A DNA stretch of 49,349 nucleotides from a virus (lineage: Duplodnaviria > Heunggongvirae > Uroviricota > Caudoviricetes): IMG/VR virus record IMGVR_UViG_2529292718_000007, one strand, 5' to 3'. The position numbers were made by a program, and so were the translations under genes. The notes beneath the pieces were generated by a model. The model searched no databases, had not been told where the DNA came from, and saw only the letters and a list, made by a program, of their open reading frames with translations. This document shows positions 14,318 through 42,952 of this stretch, piece by piece. Position 1 is the first letter of the stretch; the number at the start of each line of letters is the position of its first letter.

Positions 14318-17164
14318 GTGAGTAAATTATTATTTACGATGACTGACGCCGGGCGTAAGGCGCTGGTTAATGCCAACAAGACTGGAACAAATAAAGTTGA
14401 GATCGTTTCTGTTGGTTTAGGTAGTAGATATTATGCCACATCAACCACACAAACAAAAATAACAGATGAAATAAAGCGACTTACCACAATAGGAGGCAAA
14501 GTCGTTTCTCCTGATACCATTCATGTAACTGCGAAGGATGATAGTAAAGATGAGTATGTTGTCCATACAATAGGTTTGTATACAAATAAAGGAACATTGT
14601 TTGCTGTATACTCGCAAGAACAAGTAATAATAAATAAAGCATCTTCTACAATTGCTTTAATATCAAGTGATATAGCAATTAAAAATCTTGATACTAAAAA
14701 CATTACATTTGGTGATGTTGAGTTTATTAACCCTCCCGCAACCGAAACTGTTGTTGGAGTAGCAAGATTTGCTAATGAACAAGAAATTGATGCAGGTACA
14801 GATGATTCCCTGGCTGTTTCAGCAAAGCGGCTTAAGCAAGCTATTGTAAAACATGAGCAATCACGTAATCATCCTGATGCAACTTTAACATCAAAAGGCA
14901 TTGTTCAACTCAGTAATGCCACCAATAGCACGTCTGAAAAGCTCGCAGCGACGCCTAAGGCTGTTAAGGCTGCATATGACCTGGCTGACGGAAAATATAC
15001 CGCCCAGAATGCCACCACGGCACAAAAAGGGATAGTTCAGCTCAGTAGTGCCACTAACAGTACGTCTGAAACGCAGGCGGCAACGCCAAAAGCGGTCAAG
15101 GCAGCAAATGACAACGCAAATTCACGTCTGGCGAAAAATCAGAACGGTGCAGATATCCAGGATAAATCAGCTTTTCTGGACAATGTTGGCGTTACCAGCC
15201 TGACGTTTATGAAAAACAATGGCGAAATGCCGCTTGATGCTGATCTGAATACGTTTGGTCCTGTTAAGGCTTATTCAGGTATCTGGTCTAAAGCAACATC
15301 CACCAACGCAACACTGGAGAAAAATTTCCCGGAAGATAATGCTGTCGGTGTGCTTGAGGTTTTTGCTGCCGGCCATTTTGCAGGTACGCAACGCTTTACC
15401 ACGAGAGACGGCAATGTATACATGCGTAAACTCGCCAATAAGTGGAATGGCACTGATGGTCCGTGGGGCGTATGGCGTCACACTCAATCTGCTACCCGCC
15501 CTTTGAGTACGACTATAGACCTGAATACGCTTGGAGCCGCCGAGCATCTTGGTTTATGGCGTAACAGTAGCTCAGCTATAGCTTCATATGAACGCAATTA
15601 TCCAGAGGAAGGCGGCTTTGCTCAGGGGATGCTTGAGATCCTCGAAGGCGGAAATTATGGAAGAACGCAACGTTATACCACTCGCCGTGGAAATATGTAT
15701 GTCCGCTGTCTTGCGGCAAGCTGGGATGCATCAAATCCGCAGTGGGAACCGTGGTTAAGAGTCGGTCATCAGTCAGAGAGTCGTTATTACGAAGGTGATT
15801 TGAATGATGTAACCTCACCAGGTATTTACAGCGTTACAGGTAAAGCGACCAACGGTCCAGTACTGGACGGAAACGGCGTGACTGTACTCGGCATTCTGGA
15901 AGTGTTGAGGCGGTTTGATGGTGTTAATGTATGGCAGCGTTATACAACTGCCGGAACAGGTACAACCCTTAAAGGCCGCACCTTTGAGCGCGTCTTTACC
16001 GGCAGCTCATGGAGCGAATGGCGGGAAGTCTACACCTCGTATTCACTTCCCCTGAATCTGGGTATCGGCGGTGCTGTGGCAAAGCTCACCAGCCTGGACT
16101 GGCAGACCTACGATTTTGTGCCGGGCAGTCTGATAACCGTTCGGCTTGATAACATGACCAATATTCCCGACGGTATGGACTGGGGCGTCATTGATGGCAA
16201 CCTGATAAACATCTCAGTCGGTCCGAGTGATGATTCTGGTTCGGGACGCTCAATGCATGTATGGCGCAGCACTGTAAGTAAAGCCAACTACCGCTTTTTT
16301 ATGGTTCGCATTTCAGGAAATCCGGGAAGCCGCACGATCACGACAAGACGTGTGCCAATTATCGACGAAGCTCAGACATGGATGGCGAAACAGACATTCA
16401 GCGGTGGTCTTTCAGGCGAACTATCCGGCAATGCTGCTACAGCAACAAAGCTGAAAACGGCAAGGACAATTAACGGCGTAAAATTTGACGGCTCGGCAAA
16501 TATTGAAGCGTTTCCGCCAGGTGTTCCGCTGCCGTGGCCATCAGATACGCCACCTGCAGGTTATGCAATCATGCAGGGGCAGACGTTTGATAAGGCAGCA
16601 TATCCGAAACTGGCTATTGCCTATCCTTCTGGTGTTATTCCAGATATGCGCGGCTGGACAATCAAGGGCAACCCCGCCAGTGGTCGGGCCGTATTGTCTC
16701 AGGAACAGGATGGCATTAAATCGCACACCCACAGTGCCAGCGCATCCAGTACGGATTTGGGTACGAAAACCACATCGTCGTTTGATTACGGTACTAAATC
16801 AACGAATAACACAGGTGCACATACCCACAATGTATCTGGTACTGCAAATAGTGCTGGCGCACATACTCATACCGTTCCATTAAGGAGACCAAACAGTGGC
16901 GGTATGAATTTCGACTGGCTGGATGGTTCATCAAGTGGCACGGTGGTGGGGAATGGAACTGTGCCTTCTTCTGGCGCACATACCCACTCAGTATCAGGTA
17001 CCGCTACAAGTGCTGGGGCACATGCACACACTGTTGGTATTGGCGCTCATACGCACTCTGTTAAGATTGGTTCACATGGACACACCATCACCGTTAACGC
17101 TGCTGGTAACGCGGAAAACACCGTTAAAAACATCGCATTTAATTATATTGTGAGGCTTGCATAA
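14318..17164 (+). CDS. Tail fibre protein
   Basis: 948 aa; tandem fibre repeats (GIVQLSxATNSTSE..[10 protein letters not shown] twice), duplicated central domain, His-rich C-terminal repeats (GAHTHxVSGTA...). Confidence 0.85.
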
Positions 17165-17781
17165 TGGCATTCAGAATGAGTGAACAATCACGTACCGTAA
17201 AAATTTATAACCTGCTGGCCGGAACTAATGAGTTTATTGGTGAAGGTGACGCATATATTCCACCTCATACAGGGCTGCCAGCTAATTCTACAGATATCGC
17301 CCCACCGGAAATTCCTGCTGGCTTTGTGGCAGTTTTTAACAGTGAAAATGAATCGTGGAATATTGTTGAAGACCATCGTGGTAAAACGGTCTATGACGTG
17401 GCGTCGGGGGACGCATTGTTTATTTCTGAACTCGGACCGCTACCAGAGAATGTCACCTGGTTGTCGCCAGCAGGGGAGTATCAGAAGTGGGACGGCGTAT
17501 CCTGGGTGAATGATGAGGAAGCAGAAAAACTGTTTCGGATACGGGAAGCGGAAGAGAAAAAGGCAAGGTTGATCCAGGAAGCAACAGATAACATCGCAAT
17601 TCTGCAGGATGCAGTTAATCTTGAAATAGCAACAAACGAGGAAAATTCACAACTGGATTCCTGGAGAAAATACAGAGTATTAGTGAGTAGAATTGACACC
17701 AGTACAGCTCCGGATATCGTATGGCCAGAGCTGATGAATCAGGGTTATGTTCGGGAGGACGAGCAGATAACTTCAGACTGA
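17164..17781 (+). CDS. Tail fibre assembly protein
   Basis: 205 aa; immediately follows fibre gene; Tfa-like N-terminus and acidic coiled C-terminus. Confidence 0.7.
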
Positions 17782-18308
17782 AATTTAGTGATGAATGTTG
17801 AATCATCAGGAATATCATGCAATACCAATGCATGAGCACCTATTGTGACATTGTTTCCTATACGCACTTTGCCACCAAGAATGGTGGCATTACAACCAAT
17901 GGTCACATTATGCCCTATAACAATATCCATATCATTAAATTCCCCGCGAAGTCCAATAGTTACTCCGGGCTTAATTGAACAATTTTCACCGATTGTTACT
18001 TTGTGACCGATAACAACACTGTTGAGATAAGAAATATCAAAGCCTTTCCCTATATTTACAGTTAAAGGGACTGTTACATTATATTTATCAAGAATGAAAC
18101 GTTCTATTTTTCCCGCAATCTTCCGACAGTATCCGCCTTTATCAAAAAGGTATTTGGCTATGCGCCACCAAAATAAATAACGAACCCTTCTATGTTTTAT
18201 TGCGCGAACAATTGCCTTTCGCCAGGAGAAAGGACGCTCGCTACCGATTACTTCATAGTGAATACAGTCTTTAAGTTCATTAATATTCATATCTTTATTA
18301 TTCAGCAT
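17745..18308 (-). CDS. Hexapeptide-repeat acetyltransferase (WcaB/CysE-like)
   Basis: 187 aa; tandem hexapeptide repeats ([21 protein letters not shown]...[14 protein letters not shown]); AT-rich; convergent with and overlapping 3' end of fibre-assembly gene. Confidence 0.75.
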
Positions 18309-18782
18309 AAGATAATCATGTGACCAATTATTGTAATAATTTTAATGGTATGTTTCTACTGGCTATCCAGCGTGTCTGATATCCAGTAACAAATCGTCAA
18401 CACGGGTGCAATCAAATGGTGAGTGTTAAGACTGACCACTTATTACCAGGTATGAGTGGCCAGCATTAAATCAGAACAGCCCTTTAACTGAACTGGCCGC
18501 GCTGTTAAGGGATGATGTCACCTTATCTTTGAAGCCGGACAGCATATTGCTGAACGATGAGTTTACCGCAGGTTTCTGGCTGGGAATCATTGACTGGAGT
18601 TAGGCCAGTAGTATGATGCTCGCAAAACGAGATCCAATTTAGATCCTTTTACTGGTGGATTATCGTTCGATCAGTGAGAGACTTCGTGCATGACCGAAAG
18701 TGTTGTGGTAGAGTTCTCTTAAAACCACGTAACGTGGTTATGATTGTGGGTGTCTGGTTGGAAAGTGACCAGATATGGAAAC

Positions 18783-18895
18783 AAAAAGCCCGCAGATAAA
18801 TCTGCGGGCTTCTTGCGACATCCACGGAAAACCAACAACTAACCATGGGCGCCTCGACAACTCCCATTATACGTTGGTTTTCCGTGGACGCAAGA
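18783..18895 (-). ncRNA. Candidate CopA-like antisense RNA opposite the repA leader
   Basis: Minus-strand hairpin GCCCGCAGA-ttta-TCTGCGGGC followed by TTTTT (about 18782-18810) and a 15 bp stem (CCACGGAAAACCAAC / GTTGGTTTTCCGTGG, 18812-18889) in the repA leader; promoter not located. Confidence 0.4.
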
Positions 18896-18903
18896 GCGAA
18901 CAT

Positions 18904-19752
18904 ATGGATAGACCAATGCCGTCTCTACGTTCAGCTTACGTTTGTAATTTGTCGCCGGAGTTCCAGCCTCCAAAGCACCATACGCACAAGCTGCCGCTGG
19001 TGTTATCTGATGCTTTACAGCGCATTAATGGGCGTGATCTTACGTGTGAGGTTGCGTTCTACGTTAATCAACCGTCAGAGCGGAAGCGCCGGATAAACGA
19101 GCATCGTCGTCGGGCGATTAATGCTGTGATCGCTGCGATTTTGCACCATGTAAACATCATTTCTAAGCGGGTTCTGGCCAGTGCTGAGGCGTTGGCTGAT
19201 TTTTGCGGCCTGTCTACCGTATCCGAAGCTGGGAACAAGTCTATAACGCGCTGTACAAGGGCGTTGTCGCAACTGAAAGCGTTAGGTTTTATTGATTATG
19301 AACGTCGCTGGGATCGGGTGAATAAACAGTATTGGCCAGCGAAAATAGAGATTCGTGATCAACTGCTGGAAACCGTTGGTATTACTGAACAAGCATGGAG
19401 ACGTGCGGTTAGCCAGAAACTTAATTACTTCAATGCGAAGAATAGCGAACGGCTTAAAAAAGCGATAACGGAGGCTGATTATAAGCGTATTGTTATTCAG
19501 GAGCAGATGGAGAATGTATGGCATCAGAGGAAGACGGCCAGAGAGATAAAGGCAAAACAGAAAGCAGCGGAGAGAGCTGCGCGTCTTGTTCGGGAAAAGG
19601 GAGAGGCCGAACTTCGTCATCAAATCACTAGAGAGGTTAGCCAGGAATTTGCTGATGGCATGTATCCTGGAGCTGACCTTGCATATTTACGATCCCTCGT
19701 TGAGCAGCGTTATAACAGGTTAAGAAAGACCTGGAAATCACTCCAACATTAA
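18904..19752 (+). CDS. repA: Plasmid replication initiator RepA (IncFII RepA1 family)
   Basis: Clear RepA1-like motifs (RRRAINAVIAAILHH, CGLSTVSEAGNKSITRCTRALSQLKALGFIDYE); track ORF begins at ATG 18775 but the leader hairpins lie inside that extension; alternative starts 18775/18916. Confidence 0.8.
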   Translation: MDRPMPSLRSAYVCNLSPEFQPPKHHTHKLPLVLSDALQRINGRDLTCEVAFYVNQPSERKRRINEHRRRAINAVIAAILHHVNIISKRVLASAEALADFCGLSTVSEAGNKSITRCTRALSQLKALGFIDYERRWDRVNKQYWPAKIEIRDQLLETVGITEQAWRRAVSQKLNYFNAKNSERLKKAITEADYKRIVIQEQMENVWHQRKTAREIKAKQKAAERAARLVREKGEAELRHQITREVSQEFADGMYPGADLAYLRSLVEQRYNRLRKTWKSLQH

Positions 19753-19759
19753 CCCACCT

Positions 19760-20250
19760 GAATGATGAATCCGGTTTTACCGGAGGATTATCTACGTCGC
19801 AATAAAATATCTGTTCAAAAAACAATCTAAATTAATTTTCTCTAAACCGGAACACAGCAAAAATATCGCCTTTACAGGCATCGGCTAATAAAGTTATCCA
19901 CAGTTTTGATATGTATATGCAAATGGTTTTTTATAATAGATGCACTAAACAAATAAATGCAAAATCACTTTCTTTTATTAAGACTTTCTTTATTTAACTT
20001 ACGCAGGCTTTGCCTGTGAATATGTTCGCCCTTGCAGCGAGCTAAAGCTCGCGCCGGTTCGAGTCGCTACGCTCAAATATACCTCCTCCGGCACTTGCCG
20101 GAGGCATGGAGCAGCCTGATCATCCTTTTCGAAACGGCGCGTTTCGAACTATACAAAATCAATTTATATAAGGCCGAAATAAGGCCTACGGCCGGGCTTT
20201 GCAGGAGGAAGGGGCGAGCCTTATCAATAAACGTCGAGAAATACGCACAC
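19760..20250. other. Putative replication origin region (oriR-like) downstream of repA
   Basis: Consensus DnaA box TTATCCACA at 19893..19901 in AT-rich DNA, followed by GC-rich segment with several hairpins/palindromes (CCTCCGGCacttGCCGGAGG, TTCGAAACGgcgcGTTTCGAA). Confidence 0.45.
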
Positions 20251-20383
20251 AGTAGCCATCAGAACGCGATAAAACGTAAGAAACATCATTTCCTATTAGA
20301 CATAGAAAACTTGTCTTATACGCAATGTAGTAAATTTCTATTGCCACATAGGAAAAGATTTCCTACCATCGTAGATATAATAA

Positions 20384-20683
20384 ATGGAGATGGTTATGGA
20401 TAAAGATACTGTTTTAAAAATGTTGAATCCGGCTTGTTTAAAAAAAGCGGATGAATGGGAATCTCCTACATGTGGAGAAGTTCGGGCAGTCATTGGCCTC
20501 ACCGGAATGAGTGGCTCGCAGTTGGCCAAAAAACTAGGCTTAAAAGATAGTCGCAATGTTCGCAACTGGCAGATGTTAAAGGAGTCCACATCCAGATCCA
20601 GCATTCCGTATGCAGCCTGGGCGCTGCTGTGTTACTTCGCTGGGTTAGGGTTAATCTTCATTGATAACAAAACAGATGTTTGA
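20384..20683 (+). CDS. HTH-domain protein with C-terminal hydrophobic segment
   Basis: 99 aa; HTH-like GLTGMSGSQLAKKLGL; hydrophobic tail; stop overlaps next ORF. Confidence 0.45.
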   Translation: MEMVMDKDTVLKMLNPACLKKADEWESPTCGEVRAVIGLTGMSGSQLAKKLGLKDSRNVRNWQMLKESTSRSSIPYAAWALLCYFAGLGLIFIDNKTDV

Positions 20684-21208: not shown

Positions 21209-21562
21209 TTGAGCATGTGGACGGTACTTTTTAGCCAGCGATTTGACGACTGGCTAAATGAGCAAGAAGACGCTCTTCAGGAAAAGGTTTTGGCTGATTT
21301 GAAAAAGCTACAGGTTTACGGACCTGAGTTACCCAGGCCATATGCCGATACCGTAAAAGGTTCTCGGTACAAAAATATGAAAGAGCTTCGCGTTCAGTTT
21401 TCTGGCCGTCCGATAAGAGCCTTTTATGCGTTCGATCCGATTCGCCGGGCCATCGTTCTTTGTGCAGGAGACAAAAGTAACGATAAACGGTTTTATGAAA
21501 AACTGGTGCGTATAGCTGAGGATGAGTTTGCAGCACATCTGAACACACTGGAGAGCAAGTAA
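21209..21562 (+). CDS. higB: Type II toxin, RelE/ParE superfamily (HigB/Gp49-like)
   Basis: 117 aa; Gp49/HigB-like pattern (ELRVQFSGRPIRAFYAF, RRAIVLCAGDKSNDKRFYEKLVRIAEDEF); toxin-first order. Confidence 0.75.
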   Translation: MSMWTVLFSQRFDDWLNEQEDALQEKVLADLKKLQVYGPELPRPYADTVKGSRYKNMKELRVQFSGRPIRAFYAFDPIRRAIVLCAGDKSNDKRFYEKLVRIAEDEFAAHLNTLESK

Positions 21563-21861
21563 TGAGAACATTAGATGAGGTGATTGCCAGCCGTTCACCT
21601 GAAAGCCAGGCGCGAATTAAAGAAATGGCAGATGAGATGATTCTTGAGGTCGGCTTGCAGATGATGCGTGAAGAACTCCAGTTATCACAAAAACAGGTTG
21701 CTGAGGCGATGGGTATAAGCCAGCCAGCAGTAACAAAGCTGGAGCAGCGCGGAAATGATTTAAAGCTGGCGACATTAAAGCGTTACGTTGAAGCTATGGG
21801 AGGCAAATTAAGCCTGGATGTTGAGCTTCCCACAGGAAAACGAATAGCGTTTAACATCTGA
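21562..21861 (+). CDS. higA: Antitoxin, XRE-family HTH (HigA-like)
   Basis: 99 aa; HTH LSQKQVAEAMGISQPAVTKLEQ; ATGA overlap with toxin stop. Confidence 0.75.
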   Translation: MRTLDEVIASRSPESQARIKEMADEMILEVGLQMMREELQLSQKQVAEAMGISQPAVTKLEQRGNDLKLATLKRYVEAMGGKLSLDVELPTGKRIAFNI

Positions 21862-23347: not shown

Positions 23348-24490
23348 TTATGGTCTGCTTTTCTGTGCGAGCTTATCAGCACATGTTTTTATCAGCTCCT
23401 GTAGTGTCCTGGCTGGCAGGTTTGCATCCAGTACGCTGAGTATGCTGTTGTGATCTGCCTGGTCGACTACTTTGCCTGTCGGTGGTAATAGCTTGAGCTG
23501 AGGATTCAGGTTTTCGTCAAAGCTGATAAGTGCTCTGGCGTTTCTGAGCAGATCAAGAAGTAAGGCTGATATCACATTTTCCTGAGTCATTGCTGGCAGA
23601 TTTAGCGCCGCTTTGGTTTTCCCTGTTGCCTTGTCAAACTCCTTGATTAGTTCCTTCCTGTAGTTCGGTTCCGTTAATAGCCGATTATGCTCTGTTGCCG
23701 CGCGGATAATCGTTTTTTCCTGGTACAGTCGTTTAGCCAGATCGCGCTCGTACTGTGTTTTTAACACGCTGCTGATAGCGCTAAAGGCTTCAATGTAGGC
23801 CAGCTTGATATCCTTCACGCCTGGACCGTCGATACTTTCCATGAGCAAGGTAAATCCGTCTTTTGTCATGCGATAGATTGTTATTTCGCGGTCGCTTCCT
23901 TCCAACGGTCGTTGCTCTTTAAAGAAATGACGCGCCGCAGCTGTGCGAGGAATGCGTAACGCATCGATGGCCATAACGATGGAATTGTTTGTGGTGCTGA
24001 ATGCTTGGGCAACATCGGCTGAGGTTGTGAGTGGCTCGTTATTGCACACCTTAATGTAAAACATCGGTTTGGCGTTGAGCGTATCGACAACCTCACGAGC
24101 ATTGTTTGGCGAGACGGTTACGGTCGCGGCCGTTTGCGCGTTCTGGTTGAAGTAGCAGTCTTCCAGCCGTTCGAATACATCCCACGCCTGATCGGTTTCG
24201 AGCATTTTAGCGTGACGTGCAGCCCCGCGTTCGGTCCAGAGGATTAGTTTTCTAACGTTATTCGCGATGGTTTGAAAATCTCTTAAAGAGATTTTCAAAC
24301 TTTGGAGATCTGTACCTTTTACAATTATGAAATGTTTTCCTTCTGTAAACCGGGACTTATTACGGTGGTGATTTCTGTGAAGACATTCGACGCTACAGCC
24401 ATATAGTTTGGCAAGCAGCTCCGTGGTGATAACGGGGATCTGGTTATGCAGGATAGGCTGTAGGGTGTTAACGGTCGGAAGAGTTTTCAT
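23348..24490 (-). CDS. ant: Phage antirepressor / Rha-family regulatory protein
   Basis: 380 aa; two Rha/antirepressor-like segments (IPVITTELLAKLYGCSVECLHRN; PLTTSADVAQAFSTTNNSIVMAIDAL). Confidence 0.55.
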   Translation of the reverse strand: MKTLPTVNTLQPILHNQIPVITTELLAKLYGCSVECLHRNHHRNKSRFTEGKHFIIVKGTDLQSLKISLRDFQTIANNVRKLILWTERGAARHAKMLETDQAWDVFERLEDCYFNQNAQTAATVTVSPNNAREVVDTLNAKPMFYIKVCNNEPLTTSADVAQAFSTTNNSIVMAIDALRIPRTAAARHFFKEQRPLEGSDREITIYRMTKDGFTLLMESIDGPGVKDIKLAYIEAFSAISSVLKTQYERDLAKRLYQEKTIIRAATEHNRLLTEPNYRKELIKEFDKATGKTKAALNLPAMTQENVISALLLDLLRNARALISFDENLNPQLKLLPPTGKVVDQADHNSILSVLDANLPARTLQELIKTCADKLAQKSRP

Positions 24491-37822: not shown

Positions 37823-37898
37823 GGCCCCTTAGCTCAGTGGTTAGAGCAGGCGACTCATAATCGCACGGTCATCGGTTCAAATCCGGTAGGGGCCACCA
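37823..37898 (+). tRNA. tRNA with CAU anticodon (Met or lysidine-type Ile2)
   Basis: 76 nt cloverleaf: acceptor GGCCCCT/AGGGGCC, D-stem GCTC/GAGC, anticodon loop CTCATAA, T-arm ATCGG-TTCAAAT-CCGGT, 3' ACCA. Confidence 0.85.
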
Positions 37899-40955: not shown

Positions 40956-41579
40956 ATGACAAAACATCTTAATGTGGTTTCTTTACCACTTTCTGTGTTG
41001 ATTGGTTATGAAAAGAACGCTCGCACACACTCCGTGGAGCAGGTAGATCAGATTGTTGCCAGCATACAGGAGTACGGATGGACTAATCCGATCCTGATAG
41101 ACGAGAACAACGTTGTAATTGCTGGTCATGGTCGAATTGCTGCGGCCACTCAGTTGGGGATGGATGACGTTCCCTGCATTGTTCTGGAAGGGCTAACGGA
41201 GAATCAGAAGAAGGCATATCGTCTGGCCGACAACCGTATTCCGCTGAATGCTGGTTGGGATGAAGAGCTGTTAAGCGCGGAGCTTGCAGATCTTGCGGCC
41301 GATGATTTTGCTCTGGACTCAATTGGTTTTACTCAGCGCGAACTGGATAACTTATTGAGTGCGGCGGTCTACGATGACACAGAGGGTATGGATATCCCAT
41401 TTGAGAAGGATGAGGCCAAATCAGGCGTAAAAGTTCAGTACCTGTCATTTGGAGGTCATAAAATCCCGGCAACGGATGAGGAAGCGGATCGTTTTGACTG
41501 CGCGGTGTCTCGTTATGTTGATGATAATGGCAGCTATATCGGATTTGTATCCGCATTGCTGGCTGGGGAGGGGTGCTGA
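40956..41579 (+). CDS. ParB-like nuclease domain protein
   Basis: 207 aa; N-terminus parallels 44245..44835 (KNARTHSVEQVDQIVASIQEYGWTNPILIDENNVVIAGHGRIAAA). Confidence 0.7.
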   Translation: MTKHLNVVSLPLSVLIGYEKNARTHSVEQVDQIVASIQEYGWTNPILIDENNVVIAGHGRIAAATQLGMDDVPCIVLEGLTENQKKAYRLADNRIPLNAGWDEELLSAELADLAADDFALDSIGFTQRELDNLLSAAVYDDTEGMDIPFEKDEAKSGVKVQYLSFGGHKIPATDEEADRFDCAVSRYVDDNGSYIGFVSALLAGEGC

Positions 41580-42952
41580 TGCTTCACCTCAATTACGACA
41601 TAACGCACCTACGTGGCGCGGAATATAACCCGCGTTTTATCGGTGAGGATGATCTTGCGAGGCTGGCGGAAAGCGTCAGGGAGCTGGGGCTTGTGAAGCC
41701 ATTGATAGTGCGTGGCGATTTGCTGGTGGCGGGACACCAAAGGACGAAGGCGCTACGTAAGTTGGGAATAACGCGTGCTGCGGTGTATGTGTTGCCCTGT
41801 GAAACGACGGTATACGACGAAGTACGGTTTAACCAACTGCATAACGGAACGGATTTTGATAGCGGAGATGAGCGTTGCAGGGTGTCCGGTCTGGAAGATA
41901 AGCATGGTTTTGTTCAGGTATCGGCAAGCCAGATCTCAGGCAATATGCGCGCGAAAATGGCATATGTTCGAAAGAACATAGCGGAACTGGTTATCAAGTA
42001 TGGTCCGTGGGGTGGTTGTGTTGCTACTCAGTCTGGCGAGGTTATTCACTGTGCTCAGTATGCATTAGCAGCGAAGATGACGCGCACACCGCTAACGGTG
42101 TTTGTGATCCCTGATGTTGAGAAGGGAAAATACCAAAGTTATCTGAATAAAACTTATGGTGTATTTGAGTATTCTCATCTGGAGAAAACAACATACATCC
42201 AGACGTATGCGCAGCTTATGCGGTTGCGTAATGGTGGCAGCCTGAAATCAAACCTGTATGAGTCGTTGATCCTCCCGATCATCGCCAAGACGCCAAGAGG
42301 AATTGATTTTGGTTCGGGGCAGGGAGACTACGCGCGAATGCTCAGGGCAAAGGGATATAACCTGCATGATCTCGAGCTTTTCCGCCGTAAGGGCGCTGGA
42401 AACACTCTGGATAGGACCGCAACAAACCGGATGATTGATACGCTGGTGGACGACTTAAAAACGCGAGGGCGTTACGACTACGTGATTTGCGATAGCGTTT
42501 TGAACTCGGTCGATAGTGTCGAGGCTGAATGGTCCGTTCTGACGGTTCTGAAAGGCCTGTGTAAAGCTGGTGGGTCAATATTCTTTTCTGGTCGTAGCCG
42601 TGGAGAGCTGGAAACAGTCCTGAAGCAAACACAAGCGGCGAGTTCCAAAAGCCGGCTTTATTTTATTGATCATAACGGTTTTACCGCGTTGTACCGGAAG
42701 GGGCACTGGTTTTACCAGAAGTTTCACTCTGATGATGAAGTGAAGCAGTTGTGTCGTGTACATGGTTTCAGGATTAAGCGGTCAATATTCAACTGTAAGA
42801 GCTGGTATTTGCACGTCATTAACGATGATTCCCTTAGTTGGGCGAGTCTGGAGAAAGCTGTTCGTTTTGAGTTTGAGTTGCCGTTGCCTGGTGGTTCAAC
42901 AATCGGACGATCTGATGATGTGCTGGCGGCTTTCCGGCCGTTGATTAAGTAG
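41573..42952 (+). CDS. ParB-like N-terminal domain fused to a class I SAM-dependent methyltransferase-like domain
   Basis: 459 aa; N-terminal ParB-like motif (LIVRGDLLVAGHQRTKAL); C-terminal SAM motif I IDFGSGQGDYA with downstream acidic residue and YVICDSVLN motif; no DPPY/DPPW motif. Confidence 0.55.
   Translation: MLMLHLNYDITHLRGAEYNPRFIGEDDLARLAESVRELGLVKPLIVRGDLLVAGHQRTKALRKLGITRAAVYVLPCETTVYDEVRFNQLHNGTDFDSGDERCRVSGLEDKHGFVQVSASQISGNMRAKMAYVRKNIAELVIKYGPWGGCVATQSGEVIHCAQYALAAKMTRTPLTVFVIPDVEKGKYQSYLNKTYGVFEYSHLEKTTYIQTYAQLMRLRNGGSLKSNLYESLILPIIAKTPRGIDFGSGQGDYARMLRAKGYNLHDLELFRRKGAGNTLDRTATNRMIDTLVDDLKTRGRYDYVICDSVLNSVDSVEAEWSVLTVLKGLCKAGGSIFFSGRSRGELETVLKQTQAASSKSRLYFIDHNGFTALYRKGHWFYQKFHSDDEVKQLCRVHGFRIKRSIFNCKSWYLHVINDDSLSWASLEKAVRFEFELPLPGGSTIGRSDDVLAAFRPLIK

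Follow-up and report, generated by a model that had tools for sequence, protein, structure and literature searches.

An acetyltransferase-like gene with tyrosine at the catalytic histidine position travels in a mobile tail fibre cassette of an Escherichia coli phage-plasmid

Several phages carry, beside the genes that determine host range, separately promoted accessory genes that are inherited together with them. The T5 gene llp lies beside pb5, cor follows the fibre genes of phi80 and N15, and P2-like phages carry the morons Z/fun between G and FI. Some of these loci encode lipoproteins or membrane proteins by which an outer-membrane receptor is blocked directly, others nucleases. A different type of cargo is represented by NeuO, a prophage-encoded O-acetyltransferase with a left-handed beta-helix (LbH) fold (PMC3046976), whose acetylation of the K1 capsule raises phage resistance (PMC13001214); prophage acetyltransferases are also associated with particular Klebsiella K loci (PMC13123978). 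In P2, the old/tin accessory hotspot near cos is documented (PMC9122126); that description covers the cos-proximal locus and not the slot between the tail fibre assembly gene tfa and the tail gene gpU. Here we analyse an acetyltransferase-like gene found at the end of the tail module in IMG/VR record IMGVR_UViG_2529292718_000007, a stretch of 49,349 nucleotides (hereafter the window) that represents a complete E. coli phage-plasmid of about 49 kb. Like llp, cor and the P2-like moron loci, this gene is an accessory element with a promoter candidate of its own, placed beside host-range genes and inherited with them; unlike the products of those loci, it encodes a soluble protein of acyltransferase fold. 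The best functional analogy is NeuO, which in the E. coli K1 prophage CUS-3 is likewise a prophage-borne, single-gene, cytoplasmic LbH acyltransferase carried as accessory cargo.

The open reading frame (ORF) occupies positions 17745-18308 on the minus strand and encodes 187 residues as annotated, with a fold of the serine acetyltransferase (SAT) type. In agreement with the initial annotation, it is convergent with tfa, from which it is read in the opposite direction, and it is AT-rich: its GC content is 37.2% (30% at third codon positions), lower than that of tfa (45.6%), of the distal fibre gene (50%) and of the backbone (40-47%). This low GC, the absence of the gene from a collinear sibling and a promoter-like site upstream bear out its description as accessory cargo at a location typical of morons. 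Translation probably begins at the second ATG (18290), which would give 181 residues, because all homologues start there and a 90%-identical copy (locus L011) has no upstream ATG. Two features of this prophage cargo are not obvious, namely its membership of a mobile fibre cassette and an active site in which tyrosine replaces histidine under selection. Our preferred reading, to which we assign a probability of roughly 0.45, is that the gene is a self-promoted moron coding for an envelope-glycan-modifying acyltransferase that is inherited with the receptor-binding module.

The exchangeable host-range cassette extends over 3.6 kb (14969-18561). It begins in the tail fibre gene, of which it takes in the distal two-thirds, continues through tfa and the acetyltransferase gene, and includes a further 253 bp upstream of the latter. 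Its limits are given by comparison with the sibling phage-plasmid pRHB41-C23_4 (L023, from E. fergusonii), which is 95-98% identical on both cassette flanks. Homology between the two ends at 14968 and restarts at 18562; in between, the sibling has another fibre tip, another tfa and no acetyltransferase gene, so that repA follows tfa directly. The breakpoint falls within the tail fibre gene (14318-17164, plus strand; 948 residues with Phage_fiber_2, Collar and Phage_fiber domains; phrog_295), which is split between the backbone (N-terminal part) and the cassette (distal part). The next gene, tfa (17164-17781, plus strand; Pfam Caudo_TAP, 1.1e-39; phrog_105), encodes the fibre assembly chaperone. 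P2-like elements, namely a 34-kb plasmid and a chromosomal prophage, carry the same cassette with 94-96% identity and with its right end likewise at 18561; P1-like phage-plasmids have it at 94% identity over 15186-18378. Three phage backbones carry the one cassette.

The source of the cassette is marked by its right end, where a remnant of the P2-like tail gene gpU is preserved (18471-18561, minus strand). It consists of the last 29 codons, and its translation ends in SSFSNMLSGFKDKVTSSLNSAASSVKGLF followed by the stop, matching the C-terminus of the gpU homologue of prophage L009, which is recognised by Pfam Phage_P2_GpU (5.3e-39). The remnant shows that the phage-plasmid obtained the cassette from a P2-like prophage, where tfa and gpU flank the gene. 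A macro-domain gene (Pfam Macro, 8e-19) stands between the fibre gene and tfa, near the acetyltransferase gene, in some cassette versions (L027:1239-2141; plasmid CP056621.1).

Window-type copies of the gene were detected in 184 of 5426 complete E. coli genomes, at 223 places of which 165 are chromosomal and 58 on plasmids, and a close partial homologue has been recorded from Providencia. Among the sampled hits in these complete genomes, the 3' third of the window's tfa variant was never found without the acetyltransferase gene attached. Over positions 17000-19000 the window is matched at 99-100% identity by about 20 PLSDB plasmids of 47-50 kb and, at the same level, by the induced myovirus vB_EcoM-613R2. 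Two otherwise identical siblings (CP125027.1 and NZ_CP040921.1) have an insertion of an IS3-family element or IS2 inside the region from the fibre gene through tfa and the acetyltransferase gene to repA.

The position beside tfa recurs in other phages. Homologues lie tail-to-tail with tfa in Hafnia phage yong2 (53% identity), in Citrobacter phage phiNP (38% identity, directly after a hicAB pair), and in both the P1-like phage JL22 and P2-like prophages of E. coli O157:H7 and O22:H8 (35-37% identity). In the 987-group phages of Streptococcus thermophilus a 31%-identical gene comes right after the receptor-binding genes, co-oriented with the structural genes; in ESSI2 a homologue is located far from the fibre genes, in an accessory region after int. 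Together, the co-transfer of the cassette and this conserved place beside tfa link the gene to the receptor-binding module.

The JL22 and O157:H7/O22:H8 homologues form a paralogous type (L007:4022-4498 in JL22; L026:2772-3344 and L027:2772-3344, the O157:H7/O22:H8 copies, in the tfa-gpU slot). They share with the window protein the family, the slot and the database name, and differ from it in sequence (35-37% identity) and in having kept the canonical Glu-His dyad. This Glu/His-type paralogue is found in 530 of the 5426 genomes. In JL22, where it is called 'sacF' and its function is stated to be unknown (PMC9603915), it lies between U' and tfa and adjoins cin (L007:773-5120). The JL22 gene would thus be in or at the invertible C-segment, and inversion could flip its orientation relative to the late fibre operon. 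In P2-like prophages of E. coli O25b:H4 and SCU-152 (L025:1561-3472 and L028:1314-3474) the tfa-gpU slot has no acetyltransferase gene and holds instead an invertible alternative host-range set, in which a serine recombinase (Resolvase plus HTH_7) accompanies another tfa and another fibre tip. The slot is the variable end of the host-range locus.

The claim that the product is a WcaB/CysE-like hexapeptide protein was borne out by both profile and model. Pfam Hexapep (PF00132) scored 47.5 bits, above its gathering score of 27, and a confident AlphaFold2 monomer model (pLDDT 91.6) consists of four N-terminal helices followed by a left-handed beta-helix, the combination of helical N-domain and LbH that defines the SAT-type fold; the best solved structural neighbours are SAT-fold enzymes. 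The C-terminal coils are conserved across the family, which is compatible with, and not proof of, a homotrimer binding acyl-CoA between subunits. Assignment to a subfamily was not obtained. The top NCBIfam matches were EpsC (NF041874, 81.2 bits against a curated cut-off of 150) and then CysE (TIGR01172, 71.5 against 210.65; NF008349, 44.7 against 397), and the WcaB models likewise remained below cut-off (TIGR04016, 60.1 against 194.65; NF007564, 62.4 against 196). In PHROGs the protein matched phrog_2154 ('unknown function') over its full length (E 6.9e-79; residues 5-186 against profile positions 2-184 of 185), and no defence family in PADLOC-DB 2.0 was matched at E <= 1. The separation of sugar O-acetyltransferases, serine acetyltransferases and xenobiotic acetyltransferases by profile search, proposed along with the initial annotation, therefore yielded no assignment from NCBIfam, Pfam, PHROGs or PADLOC, no curated subfamily cut-off being reached.

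Genomic context was more informative as to ancestry. Three cellular homologues, at 31-33% identity, are all located inside surface-polysaccharide clusters, among glycosyltransferases, flippase or polymerase genes and NeuB-type sugar-synthesis genes, and E. coli WcaB is 38% identical over the beta-helix by BLASTP. Because of this context and the similarity to WcaB, the sequence evidence points to descent from short SAT-like polysaccharide O-acetyltransferases and not from CysE. With the WcaB/EpsC type the window protein shares a short helical N-domain followed by a beta-helix within a total of about 160-190 residues; unlike that type, it has Thr/Tyr in place of the Glu/Asp-His dyad, scores below the cut-offs, and is encoded in a phage between tfa and repA rather than in a wca or other polysaccharide cluster. 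RefSeq names for homologues include 'serine acetyltransferase', and homologues are listed under that name, with function given as unknown, in two published papers (PMC9603915, PMC6456863), one of which states that the reason for the gene's presence is unknown while the other treats it as putative 'fitness' cargo. Our literature searches returned no experimental report of surface-glycan modification or of an adsorption or serotype effect by homologues.

The active site was mapped by HMMER alignment to SATs of the Protein Data Bank, by MAFFT alignment of 225 family members and by BLASTP alignment to WcaB, and these three independent alignments agree. Tyr94 aligns with the general base His158 of CysE and with the corresponding His of WcaB, and Thr79 stands at the site of the partner carboxylate (Asp143 in CysE, Glu in WcaB); where WcaB has E and HH, the window protein has T79 and S93-Y94. 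The substrate-binding residues Asp157, Arg192 and His193 of CysE correspond to Ser93, Met127 and Asp128. Histidine occupies the catalytic-base position in about 205 of the 225 family members, and tyrosine at this position is confined, one exception aside, to the window's clade, which comprises every sequence with 52% or more identity to the window protein, that of Hafnia phage yong2 among them. The next relatives, at 50% identity or less, keep Asp/Glu and His. Further clade-specific changes (Gly101, Pro114 and Met127-Asp128) fall at positions that line the acceptor pocket of CysE. According to a structural paper, all LbH enzymes crystallised by 2011 had a catalytic histidine in common (PMC3046976). 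The initial designation as an acetyltransferase thus holds as far as the fold is concerned; with the canonical Asp/Glu-His dyad gone, even acetyl transfer is presumptive.

The altered active site does not look like decay. Within the Tyr clade the ratio of nonsynonymous to synonymous substitution rates (dN/dS) falls in the range 0.03-0.12 in all comparisons with unsaturated dS, and Tyr94 does not vary. Such substitution rates indicate strong purifying selection, and therefore a functional protein, though the standard O-acetyltransferase mechanism cannot be assumed for it.

We propose that the gene is the moron-type part of a mobile cassette that otherwise encodes the fibre tip and its Tfa chaperone. 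Its product would be a cytoplasmic, probably trimeric, acyl-CoA-dependent LbH enzyme, descended from WcaB/EpsC-like O-acetyltransferases that decorate the lipid-linked repeat units of surface polysaccharides. Expressed from a weak promoter of its own, possibly supplemented in the P2-like setting by read-through from the late tail operon, it would modify an envelope glycan or its precursor, which might be lipopolysaccharide core or O-unit, colanic acid, enterobacterial common antigen or capsule. Competing phages would then adsorb less to the changed surface, or the phage's own progeny would be less prone to adsorb to debris. The initial annotation had left the choice between modification of a surface-polysaccharide precursor, with receptor masking, and an auxiliary metabolic role. 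Since the cellular relatives lie in surface-polysaccharide clusters, the former is the most reasonable reading; the latter, as a serine acetyltransferase, fails with the cut-offs and with the absence of the CysE residues.

Expression from within the cassette is suggested by a sigma-70-like promoter candidate at 18330-18358 on the minus strand, a consensus match consisting of TAGAAA, a 17-nt spacer and TACAAT, from which transcription would be predicted to start near 18323. In all nine Tyr-clade genes compared, a -10-like hexamer ends 30-39 nt before the ATG equivalent to Met7, in upstream regions that cannot otherwise be aligned, and this conserved distance is suggestive of a dedicated promoter. 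A terminator-like hairpin predicted by consensus scan (18477-18495, minus strand) overlaps the end of the gpU remnant and precedes the promoter candidate, which is the only element upstream that could drive the gene in the window. In the P2-like donor prophages the gene follows the late tail operon, whose last gene is gpU, in the same orientation, and may be expressed late by read-through. The opposite orientation to tfa, correctly noted from the start, does not by itself imply expression in the lysogen, given this co-orientation in the donors. After the stop codon of the acetyltransferase gene we detected no terminator-like site or significant structure that could serve as its own terminator, and the 3' end overlaps tfa.

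This overlap had been given some weight in the initial annotation. Its length is exactly 37 bp (17745-17781, on both strands), as had been estimated, and it codes for the non-conserved tails of both proteins. The L011 copy and the homologues of yong2, phiNP and JL22 do not overlap the tfa that faces them tail-to-tail but are separated from it by 10-43 bp. Comparison of these sequences indicates that the overlap is a trait of the window's cassette variant only and not of the family. No bidirectional terminator or structured RNA is predicted in the 37 bp on either strand (z-scores of about -1). With neither conservation in diverged relatives nor predicted structure, the overlap does not merit the weight placed on it and looks like an accident of the recombination junction rather than a conserved feature. 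Tfa runs about 16 residues past the end of its Caudo_TAP match (residue 189 of 205; 17734-17781), and this extension is coded largely by the overlap, which suggests that the original tfa stop was lost at the recombination junction. An Rfam scan of positions 17000-20500 returned sub-threshold matches only. One of them, to IS009, lies in tfa at 17507-17705 on the plus strand (81.5 bits, gathering score 117; E 4e-18); its probable cause is homology to tfa genes of cryptic prophages in K-12 rather than a small RNA.

Several observations weigh against a glycan-modifying role. The most direct is that none of the alignments places a catalytic histidine, the general base, in the protein, Tyr94 standing at its position; with the dyad missing, O-acetyl transfer by the standard mechanism is doubtful. 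Membership of a glycan-modifying subfamily is not backed by a score above any curated subfamily cut-off. The carriers are E. coli of many serotypes (O121, O6, O166, O103, O80 and others) as well as Klebsiella plasmids, and such a spread over serotypes and genera argues against an acceptor specific to one O-antigen. Up to three window-type copies are found per genome, a poor fit with strict exclusion of phages bearing the same fibre. A strict co-variation of fibre and acetyltransferase is ruled out by yong2, in which a 53%-identical homologue accompanies a fibre and a tfa unrelated to those of the window. Finally, the slot is a junction of convergent operons that also takes other cargo, so that position alone could reflect a permissive site.

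The principal alternative is that the protein is a neofunctionalised enzyme or a pseudoenzyme that has lost glycan acetylation and has an intracellular role. It might carry out N-acylation without a base, as some LbH N-acetyltransferases were found to do after 2011, hydrolyse acyl-CoA or modify a small molecule. It might instead serve as a binder, or as a dominant-negative partner for LbH enzymes of the host, and the benefit could lie in phage defence, counter-defence or host manipulation. Such a change of function would account for the replacement of both dyad residues together with changes at the equivalents of CysE G165, Q178, R192 and H193, all of them in the acceptor pocket of a helix that is otherwise conserved, and for the strength of purifying selection, which marks the altered site as functional and not decaying. 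The location of the ESSI2 homologue, which is of the His type, after int, and of the phiNP homologue directly after a toxin-antitoxin pair, is also in keeping with it. On the other hand, no PADLOC defence model was matched, no conserved partner gene accompanies the family, and we know of no precedent for LbH pseudoenzymes in phage defence. Moreover, relatives with an intact dyad occupy the same place beside tfa, and a shared ancestral role of the glycan type is therefore probable. On balance we consider an intracellular role unlikely.

A function in virion assembly, in which a late-expressed protein would modify or assist the fibre or Tfa, we regard as very unlikely. Co-transfer with the fibre tip and tfa is what would be expected of such a helper, and both the P2-like prophage copy, downstream of and co-oriented with the late tail operon, and the S. 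thermophilus phage homologue, co-oriented with structural genes, are placed for late expression. However, the sibling phage-plasmid and many P2-like prophages build fibres without the gene, the ESSI2 homologue is remote from fibre genes, and in the window the gene depends on its own promoter candidate; to our knowledge LbH acyltransferases do not act on proteins. It is slightly less probable still that the gene is a neutral passenger at a permissive insertion site beside tfa with no functional tie to host range. The slot between convergent operons does accept alternative cargo, and the overlap with tfa does resemble a junction accident, but neutrality is hard to reconcile with the dN/dS values, with the occupation of one slot by two lineages that share only 37% identity (present in 184 and 530 of 5426 genomes), and with the same arrangement in unrelated phages of Hafnia, Citrobacter and Streptococcus. 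That the product is a genuine serine O-acetyltransferase, boosting cysteine synthesis as an auxiliary metabolic gene (AMG) or acting through O-acetylserine signalling, agrees with the RefSeq names, with SATs as best solved structural neighbours and with EpsC and CysE as top NCBIfam matches, but is extremely unlikely and effectively excluded by scores that stay below the cut-offs (81 bits for a cut-off of 150, 71.5 for one of 210.65), by the loss of the catalytic and serine-binding residues of CysE (T, S, Y, M and D stand at the positions of D143, D157, H158, R192 and H193), by the lack of a long N-terminal domain of SAT type and of a CysK-binding tail at the C-terminus in a protein of 187 residues ending ...SSSRT, and by cellular relatives that belong to polysaccharide clusters and not to cys operons.

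The remainder of the window agrees with a phage that is maintained as a plasmid. Head genes include a lambda-type terminase, a portal, a ClpP-like protease and a capsid module; the tail genes, among them P2-type gpV, W, J and I, make up a module for a contractile tail and baseplate; and plasmid functions are represented by an IncFII-type RepA, ParA and a RelE/ParE pair. The gene repA, which begins at 18775, is the next one past the acetyltransferase gene. Its annotated ORF starts with a 56-residue extension outside the RepA models (18775-18950), and this stretch contains a perfect 16-nt inverted repeat (18821-18836 and 18873-18888) and a near-palindrome (18782-18815), which may belong to the leader or antisense-RNA control region of an IncFII-type replicon. 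A RelE/ParE toxin gene with a helix-turn-helix antitoxin gene is located at 21209-21861 (plus strand), a gene for an antirepressor-like protein with ORF6N/Rha domains at 23348-24490 (minus strand), a tRNA-Met (CAT) gene at 37823-37898 (plus strand) and a gene for a ParB_N-methyltransferase fusion at 41573-42952 (plus strand).

A conserved tyrosine in place of a near-universal catalytic histidine, held under strong purifying selection, is a directly testable puzzle of enzymology. As a speculation, which we think rather improbable in its full form, the Tyr94 clade could constitute a new catalytic type of LbH protein (Tyr-based, perhaps with Tyr94 and Asp128 acting across the trimer interface) or a CoA-binding pseudoenzyme, and an obligate third part of a cassette of fibre tip, chaperone and receptor modifier through which each new receptor specificity would bring its matching receptor-masking activity; with the Glu/His-type paralogue it would make up an unrecognised surface-conversion system in about one-eighth of sequenced E. 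coli, O157:H7 included. Databases consistently give this common family the wrong name 'serine acetyltransferase', and renaming it would stop false calls of cysteine metabolism AMGs. If the protein is indeed a modifier of the receptor or surface glycan, swaps of fibre tips among P2-like prophages, P1-like phage-plasmids and the phage-plasmid family described here would also move surface conversion, which would bear on the prediction of phage susceptibility, on serology and on the design of phage therapy in E. coli.

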